Shown here one piece after another: positions 1,703 to 41,586 of a stretch of DNA of 41,630 bases; the stretch's first letter is position 1; each line of letters begins with the position of its first letter. This stretch comes from a virus. The translations under genes and the position numbers were made by a program. The DNA is taken from UHGV virus genome UHGV-1355554. One strand, given 5' to 3'. Under the pieces are notes generated by a model, which made no database searches, had not been told where the DNA came from, and saw nothing but the letters and a program-made list of their open reading frames with translations.

Positions 1703-3007
1703 TTATTTTACACTCTCCTCTATCATTTCATTGGTAAAATCTTTTCCATTTGTAACTGTCTCAAAGATCTTTTTCTCAATTTGTGTATCTGGAATAATGT
1801 GGATAAAATTAGGTGTACACTCCTGACCAAATCTATCAACTCTAGCTTTTGCCTGAATATAGTCTGTAGAACTTAATGGCATAGAATTGAATACGCATAC
1901 ACTAGCTATTTTCAAGCTATTGATGCCTGTACTAGCACTTTTATATTGGGCTAAAACCACTCCATTATCATAGTCTTTGAAATTAGTCAAATCTTTATTA
2001 TTTCCATTATAACTACTATATGGTCTTTTTAGTTTATTCAACAGTTCTGAAATCATATAAAACTCTGCGTTGTAATTATAAAATATGACCACTCGTTCAC
2101 CACTGTATTCTTCTAGTACTGCTTGTAAACGCTCAAACGGTTCTTTAGACACCTGTTTGTGTACACCTTTAAGAAAACCATGTGATATTTGACGTAGGGC
2201 GTTAAATAATTTACTACTATTGTCTAGCTCAATAATATTATCTAGGTCGTCTTTGTACATTCTGACTTTCTTTAATTTATTATAAAACGCAGGCTTTTTG
2301 GTCTTATAATAAAAATCTTGTGGCATATATGGTTTATCACGTTCATACCTAACACTTACTTTATCAATCATTTGTTTCAATAAGTGCTCGTTGCGGTAAC
2401 CAATAATCTGCATGAATCTAGCGGATCCCATTTGTTGCATGCGTTCAGTTACAAATAATTCATAGAACTCTTTTTTTGGCTTGCGGAACACATTTAACAT
2501 GTGAAGTTGACTATAATAGTTTTCTAGTTTTCCGTTTGCTACTGGTGTTGCAGTTAATAATCTAACGTGAGTGGTCTTTTTACATAAATTCATCATGAAT
2601 TTTGTTACCTTTGATTTTGGTACTGACACCTTATGGCTTTCGTCAATTATGATGTATGTGTTTTTATCAACCCAGTTTGTCAATTCAGTTAAGCGCCAAC
2701 TACTCTCAAAGCTAATGGCTACCCTGTCTGACTCTGACAATAGTTGTTTATTTTTAGTAGTTCCTTTATTTAAAGGGGTAATGGTAATTCCCATTAATTG
2801 ACCATCTTCTGCAAAGTCAGCTACTTTTGGAGCTAGACAAACCACTAGCAATTTACTACAGCCACTTTTCAAGTAGGCTCCAAGTGCTGAGTACGTTTTT
2901 CCAGTTCCAGCGGATGATAAGTCAAAGTTCTTTTTATCAGATAATTCAATAGCTTCTACTTGATGTGGAAGAAGTTCTACTTTACCTATTTTATTCTGCA
3001 TATTCAA
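1703..3007 (-). CDS. SF2 (DEAD/DEAH-like, SNF2-type) DNA helicase
   Basis: Walker A SSAGTGKTYSA, motif II IIIDESH, and C-terminal helicase motifs (QAKARVDRFGQ). Confidence 0.75.
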   Translation of the reverse strand: MNMQNKIGKVELLPHQVEAIELSDKKNFDLSSAGTGKTYSALGAYLKSGCSKLLVVCLAPKVADFAEDGQLMGITITPLNKGTTKNKQLLSESDRVAISFESSWRLTELTNWVDKNTYIIIDESHKVSVPKSKVTKFMMNLCKKTTHVRLLTATPVANGKLENYYSQLHMLNVFRKPKKEFYELFVTERMQQMGSARFMQIIGYRNEHLLKQMIDKVSVRYERDKPYMPQDFYYKTKKPAFYNKLKKVRMYKDDLDNIIELDNSSKLFNALRQISHGFLKGVHKQVSKEPFERLQAVLEEYSGERVVIFYNYNAEFYMISELLNKLKRPYSSYNGNNKDLTNFKDYDNGVVLAQYKSASTGINSLKIASVCVFNSMPLSSTDYIQAKARVDRFGQECTPNFIHIIPDTQIEKKIFETVTNGKDFTNEMIEESVK

Positions 3008-3680
3008 AAGTGTAGCCTCCTGTTTGCTTTTGCTCGTTGTTTAAACATCGTCTCAGCCCTGTTCTACGCACATTAAGCTTTTCAGCTGTTGCGGTTTGAT
3101 TGTGACTATATATCACCTCTCCTGTTTCAATATTAGTAGCTTTGAATAATCTCCCACCTAATGTTTTAGATATTTTATCTCGTGTATCAACTGATAGTTT
3201 TCTACCACGGAGTGCCTCGCTTTTAGCCTTAATGTGTTCAGATGACTGAGGTCTACCTTTTAATTTTGACTCATGCATTAAGTAGTGATTTCTAAGACCT
3301 TTACTGATATTACTCCTCTTTTCTAATGTCCAATTTATATTTTTACTACGTACACTCTGTTGTTTTTTAAATTCTTTGGAATGTTTCATACCTCTTGCTG
3401 GACAGTCACCTCCTACAGATATGTTATATCCATATTGCTGGTCTGTAGTATTGTATTTATTAATCAACTTAATCTCTAGTAGACACGCCTCCGTTTTTGT
3501 TAATCCTTCTTTTATAATAAAGTGATTGAAATTTTCCCACCCATATTTTAATATTGAGTTTTTAAAATGCTTACTACTATAATTTTTTCCATTATTCCAT
3601 CTCTTCAGTGGATTTTGTGACGTTATTCCAAAATATTTTTTATTGTTTACTCTGTTAACATGTAAATATACTATATACAT
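2991..3680 (-). CDS. GIY-YIG homing endonuclease
   Basis: N-terminal YIVYLH...KKYFGITS (GIY-YIG motif). NUMOD-like basic repeats. C-terminal ...TGGYTFEYAE tail shared with the HNH homing-endonuclease DNA-binding domains in this window. Confidence 0.8.
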   Translation of the reverse strand: MYIVYLHVNRVNNKKYFGITSQNPLKRWNNGKNYSSKHFKNSILKYGWENFNHFIIKEGLTKTEACLLEIKLINKYNTTDQQYGYNISVGGDCPARGMKHSKEFKKQQSVRSKNINWTLEKRSNISKGLRNHYLMHESKLKGRPQSSEHIKAKSEALRGRKLSVDTRDKISKTLGGRLFKATNIETGEVIYSHNQTATAEKLNVRRTGLRRCLNNEQKQTGGYTFEYAE

Positions 3681-3730: not shown

Positions 3731-4081
3731 TTAATCAAATATGATTTTATCAATCTCAATTTCTGGCAATTCTGGTTGTTCATATTGACGAGCAATTCCA
3801 TTGTCAATACAGGATAGTAAGGTCATTAAATCGTGAAGGTTATCTCTTAGTAGTAAACCAAATCCATGAGCATCACGTACTTTTTGGAGATAACTTATTT
3901 GCAATGGGTCTGCGGTATAGTCACCAACTTTTAATTCTAAACTAATCCAATAACCCTTATAGCAACATTCCACGTCAGAGCGACCTACTTTGTCAAACAT
4001 GTTGGCTGTATTTACGTTTACTAAAGCACCTTTTTCTTTCAAGTATTTGACAACTTGTTTACTGAACTGACTTTCTTTCAT
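3731..4081 (-). CDS. VRR-NUC (PD-(D/E)xK) nuclease
   Basis: GRSDVECCYKGYWISLELK (D...ExK) and a downstream PLQISYLQKV motif. Confidence 0.6.
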   Translation of the reverse strand: MKESQFSKQVVKYLKEKGALVNVNTANMFDKVGRSDVECCYKGYWISLELKVGDYTADPLQISYLQKVRDAHGFGLLLRDNLHDLMTLLSCIDNGIARQYEQPELPEIEIDKIIFD

Positions 4082-4293
4082 GATTTCTTACTCAATCCCT
4101 TCTTTTTACCTGTTACTTTTTCTTCGCAAATAACTAATACTTCATCAATTGTCATGCCTGAGTCTTTCATATGTGTTAGTAACCCACCATATAGCGCCCA
4201 CAGATATTGCTGTTGTTTTTCCCCATAGTCTGGCATTACCTGAGGTTCTAATTCTGTAGTAATATCATCCCATTCTTTTGACGTTAAGCTCAT
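4078..4293 (-). CDS. Hypothetical protein (71 aa)
   Basis: ORF overlapping its neighbours by 4 nt. Operon context. Confidence 0.45.
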   Translation of the reverse strand: MSLTSKEWDDITTELEPQVMPDYGEKQQQYLWALYGGLLTHMKDSGMTIDEVLVICEEKVTGKKKGLSKKS

Positions 4294-4509
4294 TTATTCT
4301 TCCTCCCAATTAATAATGTTAGTTGTGATAGCGTCTTCTAAGTAGCGTTTTACTCGTTGTGCCTCTTTCAGAGTTAGTGTTACAAAAGCATTATCTTCGT
4401 AATTGTCTATTACTCTAATATAAATATAACGATCATCATCACCCGTTGAAATACGCACTTTCTCATCAATTATTGTGGTTATTTCTTTTGTGTACTCAAT
4501 TTTATCCAT
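4294..4509 (-). CDS. Hypothetical protein (71 aa)
   Basis: ORF with RBS GAAGGAGGA. Confidence 0.45.
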   Translation of the reverse strand: MDKIEYTKEITTIIDEKVRISTGDDDRYIYIRVIDNYEDNAFVTLTLKEAQRVKRYLEDAITTNIINWEEE

Positions 4510-8209: not shown

Positions 8210-8497
8210 TTAGCCCTCCTTTTGTTTATGAGGTATATATTTTAAATTTTCTAATTTACAGTTAGCTTGATTACCATCAATATGTTCTAACTCATAGTTA
8301 TAAGGTGGGTTTTGTACATATGTTTGATAGACTAATTTATCAACTCTTACTGTGTGTGCTTTCTTGTTAGTATCATATATTTTTGTGTATATATTATTAC
8401 CAATCCATTTACGTCTAATAGGTTTGTTGTGTCTATTATATACAATACCTCCTTTAGTCACTTCATAATTACTGAACTCAATTATATTGAAAACCAT
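8210..8497 (-). CDS. Small HNH endonuclease (AP2-like N-part plus HNH)
   Basis: C-terminal YNYELEHIDGNQANCKLENLKYIP is an HNH motif. RBS AAGGAGG. Confidence 0.65.
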   Translation of the reverse strand: MVFNIIEFSNYEVTKGGIVYNRHNKPIRRKWIGNNIYTKIYDTNKKAHTVRVDKLVYQTYVQNPPYNYELEHIDGNQANCKLENLKYIPHKQKEG

Positions 8498-9990: not shown

Positions 9991-10383
9991 ATGCCACAAC
10001 GTAAGTGTGCAGTGGCTTCGTGTCGCAACTATGTCACGCTACCTGAGCGCTACTGTGACGCACACAAAGGACACAACAACAGTCAATACAATAAGCATGT
10101 AAGATACAACGATGACAACAAGAAGTATAGTAACTTCTATCATTCAACACAATGGAGGAACGCACGTAAAGCCAAGCTAATGGAGCAACCACTCTGCGAG
10201 GTATGCTTGGCACAAGGCAAGTACACTAAGGCTGATATGATTCACCATATAATCGAATTAAGAAGTCCAAATGGATGGAAACATAGACTTGATTTAAATA
10301 ACTTAGAGTCAATCTGTTACGAGTGTCACAACAAGGAAGAACACAGTTACAGTTGGAAAAATAGAGGTAGGGAACAGCGCTAA
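9991..10383 (+). CDS. Terminase-associated HNH endonuclease
   Basis: N-terminal Cys4 ribbon. HNH core MIHHIIEL...N...CYECHNKEEH. Classic position upstream of the terminase small subunit. Confidence 0.8.
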   Translation: MPQRKCAVASCRNYVTLPERYCDAHKGHNNSQYNKHVRYNDDNKKYSNFYHSTQWRNARKAKLMEQPLCEVCLAQGKYTKADMIHHIIELRSPNGWKHRLDLNNLESICYECHNKEEHSYSWKNRGREQR

Positions 10384-10730: not shown

Positions 10731-10916
10731 ATGCCAGCTCCAAAACCAATCGTAGTTAAAGATTTAGCCACCGGACAATCTCGAAAGTTTCCGTCACAGT
10801 TCGCAGCAGATAAGTTCTACGGTAAGAAGCTTGGCTATTTTAAGGACGTTCGCACAAAGCTCGGCGGTCGCAACCGTCATTATGAGATTATCGAAATGAA
10901 GGACGAACAAAAATAG
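10731..10916 (+). CDS. 61-aa protein resembling only the C-terminal DNA-binding module of NUMOD4/HNH_3 homing endonucleases
   Basis: KPIVVKDLATGQSRKFPSQFAA...KLGGRNRHY parallels KPIIC..TG...F.S...A...GKRK..GGY in the intact homing endonucleases. TATGATATAAT promoter at 10658 and RBS AAGGGAGG. Confidence 0.4.
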   Translation: MPAPKPIVVKDLATGQSRKFPSQFAADKFYGKKLGYFKDVRTKLGGRNRHYEIIEMKDEQK

Positions 10917-10945
10917 TTGACAACCTCCTTTATTTGTGCTACTAT
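10917..10945 (+). promoter_or_regulatory. Sigma-A-type promoter TTGACA-17-TACTAT upstream of the HNH remnant
   Basis: Read directly. RBS AAAGAGGAG follows. Confidence 0.4.
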
Positions 10946-10972
10946 ACTAGTATGAAAGAGGAGATTTTATTT

Positions 10973-11169
10973 ATGGAAGAAATTTGGAAAGATGTTGAAG
11001 GATATGAAGGTTTATATCAAGTAAGTAATTTTGGAAGAGTGAGGAGTCTAAAGAGTTCTATGGAGCTAGTGAATGTGCTAGACAATTAGGATTAAACCCA
11101 TCACACGTGTCAGAAGTTATAAATGGTAAACGTAATCACACTGGTGGATACACATTCAAATACAAATAG
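10973..11169 (+). pseudogene. Decayed NUMOD4/HNH_3 homing endonuclease: an N-terminal 29 aa joined out of frame to a C-terminal 36 aa, with the catalytic core deleted
   Basis: MEEIWKDVEGYEGLYQVSNFGRVRSLKSS... then, in another frame, ...YGASECARQLGLNPSHVSEVINGKRNHTGGYTFKYK*. Compare the intact copies at 24625, 36771 and 40604. Confidence 0.6.
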
Positions 11170-11175
11170 AAAGGA

Positions 11176-15780: not shown

Positions 15781-17013
15781 TTGAATCGTGAAGAGCAAAT
15801 CAACAAGGCACATGATTTATTGTCAGATGGCAAATTTGAAGAAGCACGTAGTTTAGTTGAAGCCATTAAAAAACAAGACGCAGAAGAGTTAGAAAAAAAA
15901 GCTTCTGACAAAAAGCCTGACGAAGATAAAAACGTTGAAGAAACAAAAGATGAAGAAAAAGAAGAACCAAAAGAGCAAGAACCAGAAAAAAAAGAAGAAA
16001 AAGAACCAGAAAAAAAAGAAGAAAAAGAACCAGAGAAAAAACAAAAAGATGAAGAAAAACGCTCATTAGAGCAAAAAGGAGAAGAAAAAAATATGGAAAA
16101 AGTAGTGTTAGATGGAAAAGAAATCTCTCAACCAGAAACAGAAGTTCGTGGATTTTTAAATTATGTACGTTCTCATAACCCTAAAATGGACTTGCGAGCG
16201 CTTCCAGAAGGTGTAAAATCAACGGATGTGGGTGCTATTATCCCTCAAGATATTGTCACAAAAACAAAAATGTTACCTGAAACAGTTGTGGATTTACGAA
16301 ATCTAGTTCAAACAGTGAAAGTAAGCACACCTACAGGTAAATACCCTATTTTGAAATCAACAGAAGCAGTAATGCACACTGTTGAAGAACTTGAAGCAAA
16401 TCCAGACTTGGACAAACCACAATTTGACAATGTATTATATGATGTTGATACTTATCGTGGACAAATTCCAGTTTCTCGTGAATCTTTAGACGATTCAGAT
16501 GAAGATTTAGGCGCTTTAATTGCACGTCATATTCAGCGCATTGCATTGAATACAGCCAACTCTAAAATTGTTGAAAACTTGAAAACAGCAACACCTAAAA
16601 CTGTTAAGAATTTGGATGAAATCAAAGCAATCATCAATACTGAGTTTGACCCAGCATACAACTTACAGTTTATTGTATCTCAATCATTCTACAATGAAGT
16701 AGACTTAATGAAAGACAATGAAGGACGTTACCTGTTACAACCTTCAATCACTGCTCAATCAGGAAAATCTCTACTTGGTTTGAATGTGACTGTACTATCT
16801 GATAAATTGCTAGGCGGTTCAGCAGGAGCTAAAGTAGCATTCTTAGGTGATCCAGCTGGATTTACATCATTCTTTGACCGTAACGAAATGGCAGTCCGTT
16901 GGCAAGAACATCAACATTATGGTGAAATTCTAGCAGCAGCAATGCGTTTTGACGTTAAAAAAGTAGACGCAGCAGCTGGTAAATTCTTAACTCTTGCGCC
17001 AGCGGTAAAGTAA
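15781..17013 (+). CDS. Major capsid protein (HK97 fold) with an N-terminal KE-rich delta/scaffold domain; TTG start
   Basis: No separate scaffold gene. Roughly the first 110 aa are Lys/Glu-rich with a tandem EPEKKEEK repeat. The C-terminal 300 aa are HK97 MCP-like. Confidence 0.85.
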   Translation: MNREEQINKAHDLLSDGKFEEARSLVEAIKKQDAEELEKKASDKKPDEDKNVEETKDEEKEEPKEQEPEKKEEKEPEKKEEKEPEKKQKDEEKRSLEQKGEEKNMEKVVLDGKEISQPETEVRGFLNYVRSHNPKMDLRALPEGVKSTDVGAIIPQDIVTKTKMLPETVVDLRNLVQTVKVSTPTGKYPILKSTEAVMHTVEELEANPDLDKPQFDNVLYDVDTYRGQIPVSRESLDDSDEDLGALIARHIQRIALNTANSKIVENLKTATPKTVKNLDEIKAIINTEFDPAYNLQFIVSQSFYNEVDLMKDNEGRYLLQPSITAQSGKSLLGLNVTVLSDKLLGGSAGAKVAFLGDPAGFTSFFDRNEMAVRWQEHQHYGEILAAAMRFDVKKVDAAAGKFLTLAPAVK

Positions 17014-17082
17014 CAACGCCTAGTAACGTAGCAACTCAAGACGTTACTGCAACAGGCGTTACTATCACAGCAGTGTAACATT

Positions 17083-17120
17083 AGGTGAGTGAAGCGATTA
17101 TGCTCACTCACCTTTTTATT
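17083..17120 (+). terminator. Rho-independent terminator after the capsid gene
   Basis: 10-bp stem AGGTGAGTGA/TCACTCACCT followed by T5. Confidence 0.55.
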
Positions 17121-17146
17121 ATAAAATAGAAAAGGAGAGTTGTCAA

Positions 17147-17323
17147 ATGACACGTACATTCAAAGTATATAACGGAGAACAAGTAATCAAAGAAGGAGCT
17201 TCACCGTTAGCAATCACTGATTTAACAGCATCAACACAATATAATTTGAAGATTTCAGCGGTTGAAGACGGTAAAGAGTCAGCAAAAGTAGATGTTCCAG
17301 AATTTACAACATTAGCAGAATAG
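17147..17323 (+). CDS. 58-aa protein encoding the C-terminal half of an FN3/Ig-like domain
   Basis: RBS AAAAGGAGAG. FKVYNGEQVIKEGASPLAITDLTASTQYNLKISAVEDGKESAKV matches the C'-G strands of FN3/Big domains. Confidence 0.45.
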   Translation: MTRTFKVYNGEQVIKEGASPLAITDLTASTQYNLKISAVEDGKESAKVDVPEFTTLAE

Positions 17324-19770: not shown

Positions 19771-20000
19771 GTTGGGAGGAACATCTTGAAGCAATGGATA
19801 AAATGTACACTGACCTTTTATCCAGTGAGTCTGGAACATGGTCTCTATCAGAAATTAACAACGCAGATTATAATTTACTAATGGAACTATTTACAAAAGA
19901 CAATAAACCTAAAAAAGAAAAACTGCAAGATCCAATAGATTTCTTTGGTACATTTATGAGTCCACAAGATATGGCAAAAGTAAAAGGTGAGACACTTTAG
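19746..20000 (+). CDS. T-extension of the G-T tail chaperone fusion, reached by -1 frameshift
   Basis: The -1 frame from the slippery site is open to the stop at 19998-20000. Conserved G/GT arrangement upstream of the tape measure gene. Confidence 0.55.
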   Translation, partial: GEKDLSEISWEEHLEAMDKMYTDLLSSESGTWSLSEINNADYNLLMELFTKDNKPKKEKLQDPIDFFGTFMSPQDMAKVKGETL

Positions 20001-20024
20001 CACACCGCTAGAGTGTCTCTTTTT
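19989..20024 (+). terminator. Hairpin GAGACACT...AGTGTCTC plus T5, a terminator/attenuator in front of the tape measure gene
   Basis: Overlaps the end of the T-extension ORF. The TGTTATAAT promoter follows at 20026. Confidence 0.45.
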
Positions 20025-20067
20025 ATGTTATAATAGATTAAGAAAGCAAGCAAAAGGAGTGAAATGC

Positions 20068-24555: not shown

Positions 24556-24566
24556 TATTTATAAAT

Positions 24567-24597
24567 AAAGGTGGTTCACAGCCACCTTTATTTGTGT
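24567..24597 (+). terminator. Rho-independent terminator after the tape measure gene
   Basis: AAAGGTGG-ttcacag-CCACCTTT followed by a T-run. A TGTGTTATAAT promoter follows. Confidence 0.55.
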
Positions 24598-24624
24598 TAT
24601 AATTAATAAAAAGGAGGAAGAATC

Positions 24625-25152
24625 ATGAAAGAAATTTGGAGAGATATTGAAGATTATGAAGGTCTCTATCAAGTTAGTAATTTTGGAAGGGTTAAGAGCC
24701 TAAAGCATTCTAAGGAAGGTAAAATACTTAAAGGACGAGTTACAGGTAAAGGTTATTTATCAGTAGTATTATTTAGAAATTCAGTTAGAAAATCAAATAG
24801 TATTCACCGTTTAGTAGCACAAGCATTTATACCAAACCCCGCAAATAAACCTGAGGTTAATCATATTGACGAAAATAAACTTAACAATGATGTAAGTAAT
24901 TTAGAATGGGTTACCTCAAAAGAAAATAGTAATCATGGAACTAGAAACCTCAGAATACATCAAAATAAAGCGGTAACATATAATAGGAAACCAATTATAT
25001 GTGTAACAAATGGTGTAACATATGCAAGCTTAACTGAGGCTTGTAAAAGTTTGGGAGTAACAAAACCCCATGTATGTTCAGTATTAAAAGGTAAACGTAA
25101 GACAACAAAAGGATATGTTTTTAAATACTTAAATGAAGGAGATAATAACTAA
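24625..25152 (+). CDS. HNH homing endonuclease (NUMOD4 plus HNH_3)
   Basis: MKEIWRDIEDYEGLYQVSNFGRVKS. HRLVAQAFIPNP...VNHIDENKLNN...NLEW. Confidence 0.85.
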   Translation: MKEIWRDIEDYEGLYQVSNFGRVKSLKHSKEGKILKGRVTGKGYLSVVLFRNSVRKSNSIHRLVAQAFIPNPANKPEVNHIDENKLNNDVSNLEWVTSKENSNHGTRNLRIHQNKAVTYNRKPIICVTNGVTYASLTEACKSLGVTKPHVCSVLKGKRKTTKGYVFKYLNEGDNN

Positions 25153-27266
25153 TGAGCCAAAATTATGATTTTCTACGATCCTTTACGATTGACGGAAAAG
25201 AAACAAAACATTTGTTTCAAATTGCTAAATTAAATATCCCGTTTTTATCAAAAGAAAACGAGTTTTTTCAAGTAGGCAATACTGATGGAAAAAAGTTTAG
25301 ACACACTAGATTAGGAGATTACGCATTAAGCATTGATGGTTTCATCATCAAAGACAACACAGGTAAAACCGTACCAGAAGTGATGGATGAACTAAAAGCG
25401 TTAGTCAATAGTGACGAACCTCAGAAGTTAGTGTTTGATATTTTTCCAGATAGATATTTCAATGCTATTTTTTCAGGAGTACAGGAGTATGATGCAACGG
25501 ATCCAAGATACACGCCTCTAACACTGGTTTTTGATGTACCTGACGGATTAGCTCATCAAATAGAGCCAAACACTTTTACGAATGTATACTCTACATCAAG
25601 AAACCTTATCTTGGATTCTGAATATCAGAAAAAGGATGTATATTTACATCAAGGAGTCAAGTTAGCAGAAGAAAAACACAATGGATCATCTATTGTGTAC
25701 GTAGATTATAGAGATGGTATCCCATATGGCGGTTCAGCACAAGATGAATACGTGTGGTTACCCATACAATCTATGAATAGACGTAACTTGCCAGAATTAC
25801 AAGTAGGTCAAGATGTAAACTTTTCAATAGAGGCTAAAGTATTGGCTATTGATGAAGATGACACTAGACCAGAGGCAGGTAACTTAGTTCTGGAAGAATG
25901 GTCTGTCAATCCATCAAAAGTTTTGCGTACGCACTTTATCAATATACCAAAAGAAGTAGGAGACTTCAAAAAATATGGTAAGGTAATTAAAATCACAGAC
26001 CCTAACACAAAAGCGCTCAATGTGAACTATGGAATTACTGGATTAGATACTCTTATTCACTGGTCTAAACCAATGCTATCACTATTACCACCAATTGGTG
26101 AGGAAGTGACCACCCCAAGCTACTATCAGGCGATTAATTATGAACCTTCAACGACTGGTATTTCAGACCTACTAAAAGTACAAAACAATGGTACTTACAA
26201 AACAACACCACGTTTCATCTTCACAACACAAGGTGAAAATGGTCTAGTTGCGTTAGCTAAAGATGATGGCTCAGTTTTACAGTTTGGGAATCCTGAGGAA
26301 GTTGATAATGTAACAAACGTGGTTAGTCAACAGGTGGTTTCGTGGAGCTTTTATGGTAGTCAATTGCCTGTAAATATGGAAGTGAATGCTCCAATTGGTT
26401 CAAGCACTCCATATTTTTCAAACAATCCCAATACTCCAAATATTATACAAGGCTCTTGGAATATGGACTTAGATGTGGATAGTGCGCTACCTGTTTGGAT
26501 ACCAGGAGAAACAAAAGGCGTGTGGCATGGGCCTACCCTAAGACACACAATTCCATTGGATTCAACAGGTAATAGAAACGGAGAATTTAGCACACACAAT
26601 CGCTTTAGATTCTATACACCAAATCAGAAACACAGAGGACGTATAGAGTATGTTATTTCAGATGATAATGTTGAAAATTATCTAGGTTTTGTACTAAGAG
26701 ATTCAGCTACAACGAACACCAACATGGTTATGGAGTGTTGGTATAAAGGTAAATTATTGAAATCAATAAAGGTATCACGTAAAGAATTTACAAAAGATTT
26801 CTTTGAAATAAATATGTATCGTTATAAGAAATCTTTAAAATGGAGACTTGTTCAAGTAAAAGGCATAACCAATAACAATACTGTTATAATAGACAAACAA
26901 GTTGTGTTTGATTATAACTTGGATGAAGAGGACACTACACCTATCAAGTATTGGGGCGTTTGGACTGGACGTTATCAAAATTCAAACTATATACGACCGT
27001 TCGTTACTGATACTCAATTTCGTTGGATAAGTACCCCTGTAGTTCAAAACATTAGAAATTATTTCCAAGACGGAGATATAATTGAGATAGATGTTAAGTC
27101 TAGACAAATTCTAGTAAATGGTGTTATAAATAATGAACTTAACGTGGTTGGTAACCAATGGGAGAAATTTACATTAGGTTTAGGAGAAACAATTATACAA
27201 CCTATTGTTTCAAGTTGGGCAAACCCTGCGGAAGTTATTTGTATTGTTGAAGAAAGTTATTTGTAG
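25152..27266 (+). CDS. Distal tail protein (Dit) with a large insertion, an evolved Dit
   Basis: 704 aa immediately after the tape measure protein/HNH. Position and N-terminal Dit-like region. Not verifiable without HMM searches. Confidence 0.5.
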   Translation: MSQNYDFLRSFTIDGKETKHLFQIAKLNIPFLSKENEFFQVGNTDGKKFRHTRLGDYALSIDGFIIKDNTGKTVPEVMDELKALVNSDEPQKLVFDIFPDRYFNAIFSGVQEYDATDPRYTPLTLVFDVPDGLAHQIEPNTFTNVYSTSRNLILDSEYQKKDVYLHQGVKLAEEKHNGSSIVYVDYRDGIPYGGSAQDEYVWLPIQSMNRRNLPELQVGQDVNFSIEAKVLAIDEDDTRPEAGNLVLEEWSVNPSKVLRTHFINIPKEVGDFKKYGKVIKITDPNTKALNVNYGITGLDTLIHWSKPMLSLLPPIGEEVTTPSYYQAINYEPSTTGISDLLKVQNNGTYKTTPRFIFTTQGENGLVALAKDDGSVLQFGNPEEVDNVTNVVSQQVVSWSFYGSQLPVNMEVNAPIGSSTPYFSNNPNTPNIIQGSWNMDLDVDSALPVWIPGETKGVWHGPTLRHTIPLDSTGNRNGEFSTHNRFRFYTPNQKHRGRIEYVISDDNVENYLGFVLRDSATTNTNMVMECWYKGKLLKSIKVSRKEFTKDFFEINMYRYKKSLKWRLVQVKGITNNNTVIIDKQVVFDYNLDEEDTTPIKYWGVWTGRYQNSNYIRPFVTDTQFRWISTPVVQNIRNYFQDGDIIEIDVKSRQILVNGVINNELNVVGNQWEKFTLGLGETIIQPIVSSWANPAEVICIVEESYL

Positions 27267-33290: not shown

Positions 33291-33512
33291 TTATTTTAAA
33301 TTTTTCAAGTTTTGAGGTTGAAACCCCATTGCAATCAACTCACCATTATTAAAAACTACTGGTAATGTTCTAAGGTTGTTAGCCATTAAATAATTATAGG
33401 CATCTAAGTCCTCCTCTACATTTACCTCTTTAAAATCTAAGTTATTATTTTTCAGCCAGTTTTTTGTGAATTTGCAGGCTACGCAGTTTGTCTTTGAGTA
33501 CACTTTAATCAT
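33291..33512 (-). CDS. NrdH-like glutaredoxin
   Basis: MIKVYSKTNCVACK (CxxC). ATG at 33512 with AAAAGGAGG. The track's start at 33551 lies inside the promoter. Confidence 0.7.
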   Translation of the reverse strand: MIKVYSKTNCVACKFTKNWLKNNNLDFKEVNVEEDLDAYNYLMANNLRTLPVVFNNGELIAMGFQPQNLKNLK

Positions 33513-36556: not shown

Positions 36557-36769
36557 TTACCATGCAATGTTCACTTTGTCAATTGTTTTCACTGCTAATT
36601 TTAAATCTTTTTCTAGGAAACCTTCTGTGGAACCGCTGTATAACTTAACCATATACTCCCATCCATCAACTGGTTCATACAGCTTATACAGAATCACTCC
36701 TTTGTCACCTTTATCACCAAAACCTTCAAGATTGTCTCGCTCTAGTTCTACTATATTTCCAACATTCAT
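36557..36769 (-). CDS. Hypothetical KOW-like small protein (70 aa)
   Basis: MNVGNIVELERDNLEGFGDKGDKGVILYKL. RBS AAAGGAG. Confidence 0.45.
   Translation of the reverse strand: MNVGNIVELERDNLEGFGDKGDKGVILYKLYEPVDGWEYMVKLYSGSTEGFLEKDLKLAVKTIDKVNIAW
36564..36592 (-). promoter_or_regulatory. Early promoter cassette (TTGACA-17-TAAAAT plus leader TAACTCATAAGATAAAGAGAGGA)
   Basis: Lies inside the 3' end of the upstream ORF. Confidence 0.4.
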
Positions 36770-36770
36770 T

Positions 36771-37319
36771 TTAATCTACTCCTTTATATTTGAATGTGTA
36801 TCCACCAGTTTGTCTGCGTCTACCTTTTAGAACTGATGTAATATTTCCTGAATTAAGTCCCAATTGTCTAGTGCATTCGTTAGTACTATTGAACTTCGTA
36901 GACTCGCCAGTCGTTAGATTAGTTGCAATGATTGGAATACTATTCGTTTTAGCCATTCTTTCATTACGTGTTCCGTGATTAATATTTTCCTTAGTAGTCA
37001 TCCATTCTAAATTTGGAACTTTATTGTTAGTTTTATTCTCGTCTATATGATTAACATCTGACTTATTTTCCGGGTTTGGTATGAATGCTTGAGCTACTAG
37101 ACGATGGATTCTCTTAGTAGATCCAATATTGTTTTTATATAAGTTAACTACTAGATAGCCAGTGATATGTTTACTTCCCTTCAAAATTCTATCAGTATAT
37201 GAACTCTTAACCCTCCCAAGAGCACTAACCTGATACAACCCTTCATATCCTTCAATATCTTTCCAAATCTCTTCCATTTTTATCTTCCTCCTCTTTATCT
37301 TACAAGTTAATTTTAACAT
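36771..37319 (-). CDS. HNH homing endonuclease (NUMOD4 plus HNH_3)
   Basis: [53 protein letters not shown]...NLEW...GGYTFKYKG. Confidence 0.85.
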   Translation of the reverse strand: MLKLTCKIKRRKIKMEEIWKDIEGYEGLYQVSALGRVKSSYTDRILKGSKHITGYLVVNLYKNNIGSTKRIHRLVAQAFIPNPENKSDVNHIDENKTNNKVPNLEWMTTKENINHGTRNERMAKTNSIPIIATNLTTGESTKFNSTNECTRQLGLNSGNITSVLKGRRRQTGGYTFKYKGVD

Positions 37320-37338
37320 GAATACAAAAAGAAGTCAA
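37310..37338 (-). promoter_or_regulatory. Early promoter cassette (TTGACT-17-TAAAAT plus leader TAACTTGTAAGATAAAGAGGAGG) for the HNH gene
   Basis: Read directly. The -35 element overlaps the terminator stem at 37328-37358. Confidence 0.45.
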
Positions 37339-37358
37339 CCATTTAGGCTAACTTCTTT
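37328..37358. terminator. Bidirectional terminator (AAAGAAGT...ACTTCTTT, A-run and T-run flanks) between the SSB-like gene and the HNH gene
   Basis: Read directly. Confidence 0.45.
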
Positions 37359-37368
37359 TACATTTATT

Positions 37369-38143: not shown

Positions 38144-38962
38144 TTACAGTATCTCATAATCAATTTTAAGTTTATTCAAGTCTTCTTTCTTCACTTTGAT
38201 TGTCACATATTCAACTGGTTTAGGAGCCTCCTGTTTTTGCTCGTTCCCCGTGAGTATCACAATATCAGGTACTTTCGTTTCTTTTACCCTAGCCTGTTCT
38301 TTTTCAAGACGTTCTTTCTCAGCAATCATACTGGCATAGTCAATAATAGCTTCTTGCATATTAAAGCCATTTTTAGAGTAGGCAATCAAGATGGCTGAAC
38401 GATCGTCTTTGTCTGGATATTGTGTTTTTAATAGGTCATAGTCCTGTTTAAATGTTTCAAAATAAGAAACCACTGATTCACGTATCTTTTTAGCACTGGT
38501 TGCCTTATTAGTAATTAGTGTTGGATTTTTGGCAATGAACTTATCAAAAGTAAGCCACTGTGGAGCGTTATATGACTTTTGATATTTCTTAAATAAGTCC
38601 TTGATTTGTAACTTGCGTTTTTCCTGTTCACGAGCAGTAATCTCTTTAATTTGAGCATTTATATGACCCTCACCTTCACCAAGCACCTCTTTCAATACTT
38701 TTATTTTCTCGTTGAGTTCGTCATAGGGTGTCATAATTTCACGCTTAACAGCTAGACGTTCTGAATCTAGTTTTTTAATCTCCTTCCTAATCTCAGCAAG
38801 AAGTTTTTTGTTTTCAATAATGTTTTCCTCATTTACTTCTTGCTCTTTCATACGGTCAGCTAATCTCCTAACATCTTCAAGTGTTTTTTCGTAGCCAATG
38901 AATTGTATTTCATGTTTACCTGTAGATTGAATTGATAATTCAAAATTAGTTGACTTTTTCAA
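38144..38962 (-). CDS. Hypothetical coiled-coil protein (start uncertain: TTG 38962 or internal ATG)
   Basis: Long ORF. The N-terminal 40 codons overlap the 3' end of the frameshifted HNH gene. Confidence 0.45.
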   Translation of the reverse strand: MKKSTNFELSIQSTGKHEIQFIGYEKTLEDVRRLADRMKEQEVNEENIIENKKLLAEIRKEIKKLDSERLAVKREIMTPYDELNEKIKVLKEVLGEGEGHINAQIKEITAREQEKRKLQIKDLFKKYQKSYNAPQWLTFDKFIAKNPTLITNKATSAKKIRESVVSYFETFKQDYDLLKTQYPDKDDRSAILIAYSKNGFNMQEAIIDYASMIAEKERLEKEQARVKETKVPDIVILTGNEQKQEAPKPVEYVTIKVKKEDLNKLKIDYEIL

Positions 38963-39438
38963 AATGATACCCTCCTACACTTTTACGTTTTCCACGTATA
39001 ACTCTACTTAAATCACCATTGTCAACATTTAGTTTTTTAGCACAGTCAATTAGACTGTCATATATTACACCTGTTTCTAAACATCTTATTTTAATTGAGT
39101 TGTTTTGACTTGATCGTTTGTTTCTAGTTCCATGATTTGCGTTTTCTTTTGCAGTAACCCATTCTAAATTATCAACTCTGTTGTTTGTTTTATCCTCATC
39201 AATATGATTTACTTGTGGCTTGTTTTCTGGATTGGGTATGAACGCTTGCGCTACTAAACGATGAATATTAACTCTACGCTTATTTTTTTCTATTACTTAG
39301 GTGTACATTCAAGTATCCCGTTTTGTGTGTATTGTAAGATAGTTGTTTATTAGTATACTTTCTACGAACATTTCCTAAGTTGCTAACTTCATATACATCT
39401 TCATATGATTCAATATCACGCCATACTTCGTTCTGCAT
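38946..39438 (-). pseudogene. HNH homing endonuclease (NUMOD4/HNH_3) interrupted by a +1 frameshift in an A7 run (plus-strand T7 at 39283-39289)
   Basis: MQNEVWRDIESYEDVYEVSNLGNVRRKY...HLSNRKK*, then out of frame ...[32 protein letters not shown]...GGYHFEKVN. No ORF of 60 aa or more in the track. Confidence 0.7.
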
Positions 39439-39598
39439 TAACCTCATCCTCCATCTGAAGGCGTTTATACTCTACTGCAAAAAGTTCATCAATCGTATAA
39501 TTTAATTTGAATAACCATTTGTATTTTTCAATTATAGCAAACAGCTGGTTTTCAGTGTATCCATAATCTAATTTCAAAAGGGTTTTATAGTTCATCCT

Positions 39599-39861: not shown

Positions 39862-40617
39862 TCATCTTACTAACCAGTTGTCAACATCTTTTTGAGTTAT
39901 TTTTCCTTTTGAACGTTTAATTAACCCCTCAAAAGTGCGATATGTTTCTGACTGGTGTAGTTCTACATTAATCATATCAGGTTTTCCAAATTTGTCAACA
40001 AATAACTCTCTTTCTGTTGTACTCAAGTGACGGTAACTACCATTACTAAACACGTCATATCCAGTGTGCGTTTTAGTTGATTCGTAAAATTCAATGACTT
40101 TAGGGTCATAATTAGCTTCAAGCAATAGTATATCAATCTTTATATCATTTTCCAAAAGATACTTTTCATAGTCTGTCATTGTACTTAAATCAGTGGCAAA
40201 CAGAGTGTTTTGGTTAGGGGTCTCCATAATGAAACCATGTGTTTCTGCATACTCTTCTCCAGCTCCATGATAATTCTGAAGTGTTGTGAACTTAACTTCA
40301 CCAATTTGAAATTGGAAGTCCTCTTTGAATATAAGGTCTAATTGTGGTAAGCTACGTTTTTTCAAGTTGTCTTGTACTTCTTGATTACCTAATATTTGAA
40401 TATGTGGAAAGTTTTCTCTAATCTTTTTATATGTTGTATATACAAGATGATCTTGGTGGCGATGAGTTAACAAAATAAATTGCTTGTTAAATAAATAGGG
40501 CTCAATGTGTTTATATGGCTTCCCTATGTCAATTAAGAATCCTAAATTATCATAATAGATAGAGGCGCAGTTTCCTTTACTTCCTGTATAGTGAATATCA
40601 AAACTAAATTCGTTCAA
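39862..40617 (-). CDS. MBL-fold metallo-hydrolase
   Basis: [11 protein letters not shown] (HxHxDH). TTG start 8 nt after GGAGG is assumed. The track's start at 40632 overlaps the HNH gene. Confidence 0.65.
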
Positions 40618-41125
40618 TGTGCCAACCTCCAACTGTTTTACGTTTACCAGATATTACATCTGATACATGTCCGCTTGATAAACCATATTTTAAACAAAAT
40701 TCTTTCTGAGAATTATATTTTTCTTTGATGTTACTTTTAGTACAAATGATAGGTTTACTATTTGTTATACACATTCTTTTTATTGCAGTGCCATGATTTC
40801 TATTCTCTTTATTTGTCATCCACTCTAGGTTGTATACCATGTTATTAGTCTTATCCTCATCAATATGGTTTACCTGTGGTTTATTTTCAGGGTTTGCTAT
40901 GAAAGTTTCTGCTACTAGACGGTGAATTGTCTTAGTAGATTGAATACCATTTTTAGATAATCCAACTCTTAAATATCCTTTCCTATTTACTGATGGTTTC
41001 AAAATCCTATCCGTAGTATTGGTATTGTTTACAGTATGCCGTTTCAAAGATTTAACTCTCCCTAAATTACTTACTTGATATCTACCTTCATATCCTTCAA
41101 TATCTTTCCAAACTTCTTCACTCAT
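40604..41125 (-). CDS. HNH homing endonuclease (NUMOD4 plus HNH_3)
   Basis: [54 protein letters not shown]...NLEW. Confidence 0.85.
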
Positions 41126-41586
41126 TTATTTCTATCCTCCCATCTAAACCCTTCCAATTCCCATAATTCTTTACCAAGTTCCGTTGCTGTCTTCCATTTA
41201 TCTTTATCTATTGCATTGTTAATTTCAACAATCAGAGCATGTCGTTTTGGCTCTACTTTCTTTCTAAAAGGACGTGCTACACGTTCTACCCCTTCTTTTG
41301 GATTGATGGCGTAACCAATGTTGGTATAGTGACTATTTTGTACGTTGCCATCTTTAAAATATAAATATCCTAGATTATGCTCATTTTTAACAAACATATC
41401 TGCCACTAATTGAGAGATATAGAACTTACGTGACTTCTTATGTGACCCATGAAGAACCACGTACATCTTTCCATTCTTTTGGTCAACTAGTTCCGTTTCA
41501 TATCGGTCTTTGTCTAAATGAAACACATGACCCTCATCTGTTATGGCGTACATATCGTACGGCTCGTTCAATGGTTCAAATCTCAT
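41122..41586 (-). CDS. HNH_3-like homing-endonuclease homolog with a degenerate catalytic motif
   Basis: [10 protein letters not shown] / YVVLHGS...[11 protein letters not shown] align with the NUMOD4/HNH_3 copies. The expected NHIDxxxxNN is [15 protein letters not shown], so the His is lost. Confidence 0.5.

Follow-up and report, generated by a model that had tools for sequence, protein, structure and literature searches.

Bare I-HmuI-like endonuclease genes that probably borrow resident expression signals in an Enterococcus siphophage genome

The I-HmuI-like endonuclease genes at 24625, 36771, 40604 and 38946 of the analysed phage genome are, in all likelihood, bare free-standing genes that use expression signals resident in the phage and that have spread by homing. 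Their mobility is strongly supported by comparison with related phages, between which they appear to have jumped recently. Presence/absence polymorphism of the type known for T4 seg/mob genes was found, with occupancies of 1/9, 4/10, 0/10 and 0/10 at the tape-measure/Dit, 36771, 40604 and 38946 sites, respectively; uniform presence of the same genes at the same loci, which would argue against recent mobility, is clearly not the case.

The whole stretch of DNA that was analysed (41,630 nt, here called the window) is an Enterococcus siphophage genome of about 41.6 kb, which may be a metagenomic assembly, and EF36P1 and KEN21 are about 89% identical to it. Ten relatives were included in the presence/absence comparison, nine of them informative for the tape-measure/Dit site. 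Three endonuclease lineages (24625, 40604 and 38946) are always located at the same site, including in metagenomic phages. An earlier sequence-only reading had counted nine endonuclease genes or remnants, several of them as self-contained terminator-promoter-gene cassettes, with 24625 and 36771 as the highlighted copies. All of the listed genes exist; the genes at 9991 and 41122 are core genes and not mobile, and the cassette claim fails, as the signals in question also occur in endonuclease-free alleles.

Results

I-HmuI of Bacillus phage SPO1 has the catalytic residues D74, H75 and N96 (PMC12724721). Its architecture of NUMOD4 N-terminal strands, HNH_3 nuclease and C-terminal NUMOD-like helix-turn-helix within about 170 aa was found for the products of 24625, 36771 and 40604, all three intact and of the type read from the sequence, with Pfam scores for NUMOD4, HNH_3 and the I-HmuI_NUMOD-like domain above or near the cut-offs. 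In the alignment, the equivalents of H75 and N96 are kept in all intact copies. Unlike in I-HmuI, the residue equivalent to D74 is Asn in all copies (VNHID vs VDHKD), so that enzyme activity is an assumption here. A second difference is location, since I-HmuI is encoded inside a group I intron; the copies in the window had been described as free-standing, and this was confirmed, as no Rfam intron family reached the threshold anywhere in the window, every copy lies between intact ORFs and the host genes match those of the relatives in length.

At the tape-measure/Dit site, the following features were assigned:

24560..24596, + strand, resident intrinsic terminator hairpin 3' of the tape-measure gene (-19.7 kcal/mol, z -6.25; terminator scan)
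24575..24603, + strand, putative resident sigma-70-type promoter, TTCACA, 17 nt spacer, TG-extended TATAAT (promoter scan, 11/12 match)
24625..25152, + strand, intact free-standing I-HmuI-like HNH homing endonuclease gene, 175 aa (Pfam, 1U3E alignment)
25135..25143, + strand, Shine-Dalgarno (SD) sequence of Dit, GAAGGAGAT, inside the last endonuclease codons (read from the sequence)
25152..25440, + strand, co-converted 5' tract of Dit, BUCT630/SSBHU type (sliding identity)

The gene at 24625 is positioned between the tape-measure gene and Dit, with its stop TAA overlapping the Dit ATG (TAATG), and its protein aligns with I-HmuI (PDB 1U3E) over the full length (E=1.9e-28). Upstream, the -35 box of the promoter lies within the hairpin, and the RBS AAGGAGG is found at 24611-24617. 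Hairpin, promoter and RBS had been recognized correctly; that the gene had brought its terminator and promoter along was not borne out, as both are resident in the relatives. The hairpin and the TGTGTTATAAT box at 24560-24603 are identical in sequence in the tape-measure/Dit interval of the endonuclease-free EF36P1 and KEN21, and homologous versions were detected at this interval in SSBHU, 9184 and IME-EFm5. From their presence in empty alleles, the two signals can be assigned to the phage backbone, the hairpin lying outside the mobile element, and the endonuclease ORF downstream would make use of them, so that the putative resident promoter may now drive both the endonuclease gene and Dit. 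The sequence TTTGTGTTATAAT is kept in all empty tape-measure/Dit alleles and in all metagenomic occupied alleles. It recurs at four other late-region sites, of which 10933 precedes an endonuclease remnant and 11665, 11919 and 13783 have no adjoining endonuclease gene.

Eight of the nine informative relatives are empty at this site, BUCT630 alone being occupied. All homologues of the 24625 protein (98%, 70% and 70% identity) are encoded in the tape-measure/Dit interval, and the backbones that carry them have a Dit of 1059, 1043 or 688 aa. The BUCT630 endonuclease shares 52% aa identity with the 24625 protein and has an unrelated DNA-binding region (38-48% at the nucleotide level); it was rejected as a donor, and the near-identical copies are those of metagenomic contigs. 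Such a divergent enzyme at the same place suggests that occupancy of the tape-measure/Dit site does not map simply onto one lineage.

Sliding identity along the 5' tract of Dit gave 87-95% to BUCT630/SSBHU vs 54-77% to EF36P1/KEN21. The last window before the crossover reached 82-83% to EF36P1/KEN21, and from 25452 onwards Dit switches to 90-100% identity with these two phages. As the left flank (the 3' end of the tape-measure gene) and the rest of Dit are of the EF36P1/KEN21 type, donor-type Dit sequence (25152-25440) is accompanied by EF36P1-type outer flanks on both sides, the arrangement known from co-conversion of T4 seg/mob genes; a Dit 5' end differing in type from the remainder of the gene is the expectation under co-conversion. 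From 24675 to 25320 (the endonuclease body and about 170 nt of Dit), identity to four metagenomic contigs (L017-L020) is 96-100%, while the flanks of these contigs show 52-64% (tape-measure 3' end) and 46-70% (Dit) identity to the window. The hairpin of these contigs differs from that of the window, and the shared patch starts at about 24675, inside the endonuclease ORF. In SSBHU an empty allele has nearly the same Dit 5' end as the occupied alleles, and therefore the target site is not placeable within the tract.

The copy at 36771 is located behind a second module of this kind:

36771..37277, - strand, intact I-HmuI-like endonuclease gene, 168 aa (Pfam)
37327-37359, - strand, resident terminator hairpin (-17.5 kcal/mol, z -7.4)
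37310-37338, - strand, putative resident promoter TTGACT, 17 nt spacer, TG-extended TAAAAT, overlapping the hairpin (promoter scan)

Four of the ten relatives are occupied here (KEN21, Aramis, KEN20 and KEN18), while EF36P1, EF36P3, BUCT630, SSBHU and IME-EFm5 are empty. Hairpin and TG-extended -10 box were found in five empty alleles, within 88-89 nt in EF36P1, BUCT630, SSBHU and IME-EFm5. The terminator reported before 36771 is thus real and is accompanied by a promoter; as parts of a cassette, neither holds, both being present in empty alleles. The last codons of the gene, AAAGGAGTAGATTAA, provide the putative SD of the next gene at 36769. Endonuclease copies at this site have dN/dS values of 0.18-0.23 among each other. 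With respect to co-conversion at 36771, occupied and empty relatives could not be told apart by their flank identities at a resolution of 400 nt.

Two further copies are located in the early operon:

40604..41125, - strand, intact I-HmuI-like endonuclease gene, 173 aa (Pfam)
38946..39447, - strand, frameshifted endonuclease gene (three-frame translation)

Neither carries signals of its own, their stop/start junctions overlap, and both sites are empty in all ten relatives. The 40604 gene is flanked by the 154-aa HNH-like core gene on one side and the metallo-hydrolase gene on the other, with an ATGA overlap upstream, and a new hydrolase start, TTG, would have its SD in the GGAGGT codons (GGW motif) of the endonuclease gene. 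Homologues (98%, 84% and 77%) are always found between the 154-aa gene and the hydrolase, and KEN22 and L032 show a deletion scar of the gene, a shared 17-codon ORF. The frameshift at 38946 had been read correctly, with NUMOD4 in one frame and the HNH and DNA-binding part in the next; it is due to one extra A, as a run of A7 at 39283-39289 corresponds to A6 in the intact orthologue of L032. Intact orthologues (92% and 87%) are located before DUF1351, and the 3' end of the copy (GGAGGGTATCATTTTG) offers a putative SD and TTG start for the DUF1351 gene.

Among 25 related endonuclease ORFs, collected by a sequence signature that misses some copies, 21 have the SD of the next gene inside the ORF and its start -20 to +7 nt from the stop. 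By sequence only, the genes correspond to the T4 type of promoter-less cassette with embedded downstream signals. A rule that insertion always takes place downstream of a promoter was rejected, as in KEN22 an endonuclease gene preceding the tape-measure gene is located 5' of the resident promoter module, with a different hairpin behind it.

The remaining mobile or polymorphic genes are the following:

10917..11175, + strand, endonuclease remnant with an internal deletion, preceding the small terminase gene (alignment; Pfam NUMOD4)
2991..3680, - strand, gene of a 229-aa GIY-YIG homing endonuclease, located 5' of the helicase gene (Pfam)
8210..8497, - strand, short HNH_3-type protein, 95 aa, without C-terminal DNA-binding domain (Pfam, PHROG)

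The stub noted at 10973 was confirmed by a NUMOD4 match (E=3e-13). Alignment with the full-length copies of KEN21, KEN20 and EF36P1 and the empty alleles of SSBHU and IME-EFm5 revealed an internal deletion: the remnant keeps the promoter (10933-10945 region), the RBS, about 24 NUMOD4 codons and, in another frame, the codons of the C-terminal DNA-binding part, where AAAGGAG precedes the terminase start. Occupied alleles of the small-terminase site have a promoter TTGACA...TGTGCTAtTATAAT and the empty alleles of SSBHU and IME-EFm5 do not, which makes this site an apparent exception, the only one in agreement with the promoter part of the cassette model. The GIY-YIG gene, likewise named correctly (PF01541, E=1e-8, with a NUMOD-like region), may also have a promoter of its own, as a TG-extended -10 box upstream is common to the BUCT630 copy. 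BUCT630 is the only relative sharing this gene (89.5% aa identity); EF36P1 and KEN21 have an HNH endonuclease instead, and C-terminal similarity was found as well. The gene at 8210 had been called AP2-like. Neither Pfam nor PHROG gave an AP2 domain, and the label had to be dropped in favour of HNH PHROGs (phrog_959, E=1.6e-16) and an HNH_3 match of 23.9 bits, below the Pfam cut-off of 24.8. It is polymorphic, being present only in SSBHU, KEN20, KEN18 and KEN22.

Three genes that had been added to the endonuclease load are found in all ten relatives:

9991..10383, + strand, core HNH gene (PF01844, E=2e-9), predicted packaging-associated type (Pfam)
10731..10916, + strand, core 61-aa ORF
41122..41586, - strand, core gene, 154 aa, HNH_3-derived, catalytic His lost (PHROG, alignment)

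The HNH domain of 9991 was confirmed, its status as mobile load was not: the protein is 83-95% identical in 10/10 relatives with dN/dS of 0.05-0.12, and about 800 nt separate the gene from the small terminase gene that follows. In family, position and universal presence it resembles the packaging-associated HNH proteins, and it is a non-mobile core gene and no homing endonuclease, with a putative role in packaging; we take it to be of the HK97 gp74 type ('HrdP' in Skunavirus). For 41122, HNH family homology (phrog_959 and phrog_59, E about 1e-11) and loss of the catalytic His agree with the description as a degenerate copy, and decay was ruled out by its presence in 10/10 relatives (81-97% aa) under purifying selection (dN/dS 0.10-0.26). 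The proposal that 10731 encodes a stand-alone endonuclease DNA-binding domain is unproven, as Pfam gave no match, the assigned phrog_10805 is of unknown function and hhalign against the profile of this domain gave a probability of 37%.

Discussion

From these data, a bare ORF without terminator or promoter would insert either directly downstream of a resident terminator-promoter module, as at the tape-measure/Dit and 36771 sites, or into a translationally coupled junction of the early operon, as for 40604 and 38946. The 5' end of the endonuclease gene would take over the leader and RBS position of the displaced gene, and its last codons (...KYKGVD*, ...NEGDNN*, ...GGW/GGY...) would hold the SD of that gene, at two sites together with a new TTG start and the first few codons. 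With these elements in the endonuclease 3' end, operon polarity would be preserved. During co-infection the enzyme would then nick or cut the endonuclease-free allele of a related phage, and repair would copy the endonuclease gene and adjacent donor sequence.

It is highly unlikely that each endonuclease gene travels as an insulating self-contained cassette of terminator, promoter, RBS and gene. The signals directly upstream of 24625 and 36771, the promoter restricted to occupied small-terminase alleles and the -10 box shared by the two GIY-YIG copies would suit this picture, but hairpin and promoter of both HNH sites recur, in identical or homologous form, in all endonuclease-free alleles that were examined, the near-identity to L017-L020 begins within the ORF beyond a differing hairpin, and the junctions of 40604 and 38946 overlap without own signals. 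Empty alleles are also unlikely to be secondary deletions, because about 20 phages share the terminator and promoter.

Two observations speak against passive passengers, be it that ordinary homologous recombination between co-infecting mosaic phages, without an induced break, produced the patch at 24606-25440 or that the enzymes are inactive: across divergent backbones three separate lineages are each bound to one site, and in a stretch reaching about 0.3 kb leftwards and 1.8 kb rightwards the sole foreign tract adjoins the endonuclease gene. The general mosaicism of these phages (visible elsewhere in the tape-measure gene and the helicase surroundings), the Asn at the D74 position and the divergent BUCT630 endonuclease at the same site would fit passengers, an explanation that we nevertheless consider improbable, since purifying selection acts on the intact ORFs and related enzymes give marker exclusion in lactococcal phages (PMC12724721). 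There is very little chance that the patch is a chimera assembled from two phage strains occurring together and that a homopolymer sequencing error gave the A7 run. The closest matches of the patch are indeed metagenomic contigs, and the frameshift is indeed a single extra A in a homopolymer; a chimera, however, would have to switch twice in about 0.8 kb, both times within a short conserved stretch, the junctions are functional by sequence (RBS intact, stop/start overlap TAATG), and the isolate genome BUCT630 has the same architecture at the same site.

Spread of bare genes by homing is an ordinary, already described situation and conceptually not new compared with T4 seg/mob genes or the HNH endonucleases of Skunavirus. 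To our knowledge, the sites between tape-measure gene and Dit, between the 154-aa gene and the hydrolase, and before DUF1351 are not those described in Skunavirus. The T4 genes are intergenic promoter-less cassettes that rely on upstream phage promoters, contain expression signals of the downstream host gene inside the endonuclease ORF, which has been argued to favour retention, and spread by intronless homing, in which flanking markers are co-converted (PMC2988022). The promoter-less intergenic genes, embedded downstream signals and co-converted flank described here are alike; the embedded signals in T4 are mostly promoters, whereas those of the window are SDs and, at two sites, a new start and N-terminal codons, and homing in T4 was demonstrated experimentally, whereas here it is inferred from comparative sequence. 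In Skunavirus, I-HmuI-like HNH endonucleases are clustered by site, occur several per genome and include truncated copies, and a separate packaging HNH has no part in homing (PMC12724721). The window, although its hosts are Enterococcus phages, shares with them several copies and sites per genome, the link of lineage and site, different endonucleases at one site, truncated copies and a separate packaging-type HNH. In the literature on Enterococcus phages we found genome reports only and no analysis of these endonuclease sites.

The attractive but wrong picture that these elements bring insulation signals is thereby corrected: they would take the first-cistron position behind phage terminator-promoter modules or enter translationally coupled junctions. 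The tape-measure/Dit copy is a clean natural example of what appears to be recent homing, with about 650 nt virtually identical between otherwise 50-60% divergent backbones and a defined co-conversion tract in Dit, an essential tail gene. Where Enterococcus phages are used therapeutically, tail-gene segments may be exchanged between phages by this route.

Possible, if somewhat short of probable, is a retention ratchet, in which the endonuclease 3' ends have become obligatory translation-initiation regions of genes including Dit, small terminase, metallo-hydrolase, DUF1351 and helicase, so that loss would occur only by internal deletions that keep both ends. Traces of such events would be seen in the 17-codon scar ORF that KEN22 and L032 have in common, and in the remnant at 10973-11175. 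On the conserved GG(Y/W) and KYK(E/G) codons of the DNA-binding domain, selection would act twice, for the protein and for the ribosome-binding site.

Recoded downstream starts also affect annotation. The ATG listed for 36771, at 37319, lies inside the -10 box, and the true start is 37277 (MEEIWKD...). A wrong start may also have been called for the hydrolase, where the ORF list offers 40632 and a TTG near 40617 is a better match to the SD.

Nuclease genes of the window and its phage group

Megablast grouped the window with virulent Enterococcus faecium/gallinarum siphophages (EF36P1/P2/P3, KEN18-22, BUCT630, SSBHU, IME-EFm1/5 and Aramis) at an identity of ~86-90% across 50-75% of its length; it returned no near-identical record, and the window may be an assembly. 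Complete sequences of 10 relatives formed the comparison set. KEN18 and KEN20 each have 9-10 genes annotated as HNH endonuclease, including the packaging HNH and a 154-aa core gene, and as related Enterococcus phages carry as many endonuclease genes as the window or more, its load is typical of the group.

Nuclease and related genes of the window
24625-25152, + strand, intact I-HmuI-like copy (Pfam NUMOD4 + HNH_3 + I-HmuI_NUMOD-like)
36771-37319 (true start 37277), - strand, intact I-HmuI-like copy (same Pfam domains)
40604-41125, - strand, intact I-HmuI-like copy (same Pfam domains)
39447 to 38946, - strand, frameshifted copy (NUMOD4 in one frame, HNH + DNA-binding in the next)
10973, internally deleted stub (~24 NUMOD4 codons; C-terminal DNA-binding codons in another frame)
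2991-3680, GIY-YIG gene (Pfam)
9991-10383, PF01844 HNH (Pfam)
8210-8497, short HNH_3-type protein (Pfam, PHROG profiles)
41122-41586, HNH-family core gene, 154 aa (phrog_959/59, E ~1e-11)
10731-10916, 61-aa core ORF (phrog_10805)

Pfam domains confirmed the three intact genes proposed by the sequence-only reading, as well as the GIY-YIG gene and the PF01844 HNH, and both the frameshifted copy and the stub proved real. The supposed AP2-like HNH at 8210 is instead a short HNH_3-type protein, in which Pfam and PHROG profiles found no AP2 domain. The 24625 protein matched I-HmuI over its full length (1U3E; E=1.9e-28). Asn replaces the metal-binding Asp74 of I-HmuI in every I-HmuI-like copy of the window (VNHID vs VDHKD), a residue reported to be kept by the Skunavirus enzymes (PMC12724721). 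Copies at the 36771 site are under purifying selection (dN/dS 0.18-0.23).

Expression signals at the insertion sites

The genes at 24625 and 36771 had been read as self-contained terminator-promoter-gene cassettes. Directly upstream of 24625 the claimed signals are indeed present, namely a hairpin (24560-24596; -19.7 kcal/mol, z -6.25), a promoter (TTCACA-17-TG-TATAAT, scoring 11/12) and the RBS AAGGAGG. However, alignment of this junction between the tape-measure gene and the tail gene Dit with endonuclease-free relatives showed that 48 nt of EF36P1 and KEN21 match the window bar a single mismatch in the lower stem, which is A/T-rich (TATTTATATATAAAGGTGGTTCACAGCCACCTTTATTTGTGTTATAAT), followed at once by the leader and the Dit ATG. 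A different hairpin, annotated as a terminator in phage 9184, precedes the same TTTGTGTTATAAT box in SSBHU, 9184 and IME-EFm5. Being found in endonuclease-free alleles, terminator and promoter are features of the phage backbone. At the 36771 site, empty alleles of 88-89 nt (EF36P1, BUCT630, SSBHU and IME-EFm5) contain both the hairpin (-17.5 kcal/mol, z -7.4) and a TG-extended -10 box; since the ATG at 37319 belongs to this -10 box, the gene starts at 37277. The cassette reading is thus wrong for both copies on which it rested. The TTTGTGnTAnnAT motif has four further late-region occurrences, one (10933) 5' of the endonuclease remnant and three without an adjoining endonuclease gene. The intergenic modules at 24560-24603, 19990-20035 and 37310-37359 are composite: the loop or 3' arm of the preceding terminator hairpin also houses the promoter's -35 hexamer, as in GGTGGTTCACAGCCACC. 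They are kept across the phage group.

Junction comparison revealed no terminator or promoter signals of their own for the 40604 and 38946 copies, whose upstream ends overlap the stop codon of the gene before (ATGA). An exception to the resident-signal pattern is the site before the small terminase gene, where occupied alleles and the window remnant have a promoter (TTGACA...TGTGCTAtTATAAT) that is missing from the empty alleles of SSBHU and IME-EFm5.

At the 3' end, 21/25 HNH_3-type endonuclease ORFs of the window and ten relatives have the start of the next gene at -20 to +7 nt of the ORF end, with its Shine-Dalgarno sequence (SD) inside the ORF. The last codons of 40604 provide the hydrolase with GGAGG and a new TTG start (MNEF-SFD... 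vs M(KTETM)SFD...), and those of 38946 do the same for DUF1351 (MKKSTN-FELS... vs MG-FELS...); in endonuclease-free relatives the hydrolase starts with ATG (MKTETMSFD or MSFD). ORF calling placed the start of the hydrolase (39862-40632) at the TTG at 40632; the sequence suggests rather a TTG ~15 nt downstream, near 40617 (GGAGGTTGGCACA-TTG-AAC-GAA-TTT), giving MNEFSFD....

Mobility and site specificity

Occupancy of the insertion sites in the 10 relatives
Tape-measure/Dit site (24625), occupied in BUCT630 only, empty in 8, not covered by EF36P3
36771 site, occupied in 4/10
40604 site, occupied in 0/10
38946 site, occupied in 0/10
Site before the small terminase gene, empty in 2, full copy in 7; KEN22 has part of a different endonuclease, the window a deleted remnant

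The endonuclease genes are real and the earlier inference of mobility is right. The condition that the sequence-only reading had named as speaking against recent mobility, relatives without presence/absence differences, does not hold: relatives differ in the presence of these genes, for instance at the tape-measure/Dit and 36771 sites. Homologues sought in a large protein collection lay between tape-measure and Dit genes for the 24625 lineage (98%, 70% and 70% identity, on backbones with a Dit of 1059, 1043 or 688 aa), between the 154-aa gene and the Lactamase_B_2 hydrolase for the 40604 lineage (98%, 84% and 77%), and before DUF1351 for intact orthologues of 38946 (92% and 87%); each of these lineages is bound to a single site. 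The BUCT630 endonuclease at the same tape-measure/Dit junction (16717-17247) is 52% identical to 24625 with an unrelated DNA-binding region, and 72% identical to the window's 36771 gene at another site. It shares with 24625 the last ~15 nt (AAGGAGATAATAA), and the Dit 5' ends are 92-95% identical.

Upstream of the helicase gene, the window (2991-3680) and BUCT630 carry a GIY-YIG endonuclease, and EF36P1 (25415-25903) and KEN21 (26060-26542) an HNH endonuclease. Both types end in ...QTGGY(T/V)FEYA(E/K)*, with codons overlapping the helicase SD and start (~3007), and ~50 aa of their C-terminal DNA-binding regions align at 35-38% identity, which suggests a swap of the nuclease module at a fixed junction.

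Around 24625, the tape-measure gene is EF36P1-type over its final 300 nt (85-92% vs 53-65% for the other type) and Dit from 25452 to its end is EF36P1/KEN21-type (90-100%). Dit 25152-25440 is BUCT630/SSBHU-type (87-95% vs 54-77% to EF36P1/KEN21, the latter climbing to 82-83% in the final sliding window ahead of the crossover). Over 24675-25320, four metagenomic contigs of different sample origin match the window at 96-100% identity; their flanks are of another type (tape-measure 3' ends 52-64%, Dit past 25475 46-70%). The left crossover lies within the conserved -10 box, leader or first codons and the right one ~170-290 nt into Dit. Such a pattern is the footprint expected of a recent homing event, and argues against a 24625 gene that is ancestral and was lost elsewhere.

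Architecture, resident signals, site specificity, polymorphism, co-conversion patch and purifying selection are backed by the data. During co-infection the enzyme would nick or cut the empty allele, presumably near the Dit 5' end, although the target cannot be pinned to that tract because SSBHU has the donor-type version in an empty allele. Both the embedded SD and the resident promoter are presumably in use. Caveats are the Asn at the Asp74 position, the divergent BUCT630 endonuclease at the tape-measure/Dit junction and that the window may be an assembly. For T4, Edgell, Gibb and Belfort described free-standing promoter-less cassettes relying on upstream promoters, host expression signals inside the endonuclease ORF favouring retention, and intronless homing with co-conversion as route of spread (PMC2988022). 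The arrangement read from the window's sequence matches that of these T4 genes, and also that of the I-HmuI-like endonucleases of lactococcal Skunavirus, with many sites, site-wise clustering, different enzymes at one site, truncated copies and a separate packaging HNH (PMC12724721). It is thus a well-documented further case of a kind already known from both.

Conserved genes and decaying copies

The gene at 41122-41586 had been taken for a degenerate copy. It does belong to the HNH family of the endonucleases (phrog_959/59, E ~1e-11), with the catalytic His replaced (NHID to YFKD), but presence in 10/10 relatives (81-97% aa identity) and purifying selection (dN/dS 0.10-0.26) rule out decay and identify a conserved core gene, possibly a domesticated endonuclease. 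An endonuclease insertion site follows directly downstream of it. The 10731 ORF, which had been read as a stand-alone endonuclease DNA-binding domain, is likewise a core gene (10/10 relatives). Its likeness to that domain is weak and putative (hhalign probability 37%, 36 columns), and immediately downstream of it comes the endonuclease hot spot in front of the small terminase gene. The 9991 HNH (10/10 relatives, 83-95% aa, dN/dS 0.05-0.12) corresponds to the packaging-associated class, comparable to Skunavirus 'HrdP' (PMC12724721), and not to a homing enzyme.

The sole lesion of the 38946-39447 gene, otherwise 94% identical in nucleotides to an intact orthologue, is A7 instead of A6 at 39283-39289. 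Possible causes are a sequencing error, a slippage-prone tract and inactivation that happened very recently. At the 40604 site, KEN22 (33399-33448) and the metagenomic contig L032 (559-608) have a 17-codon scar ORF, ATGAGTGAAGAAGT|AATATCTGGTAAA(A/C)GTAAAACAGTTGGAGGTTGGCACATTGAACGAATTTAG, in which the window's 40604 gene is reduced to its first 14 nt and last ~50 nt. The hydrolase SD and TTG start are retained with these last ~50 nt, and a deletion derivative of the element thus circulates in more than one phage. The remnant in front of the window's small terminase gene is built alike, with both gene ends kept. At that site, the different HNH_3 endonuclease of KEN22 (4046-4375) opens with SD-ATGGCA, which is that of the terminase gene itself, and this stretch recurs behind the ORF. 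In effect, the insert lies between two short copies of the host gene's start region.
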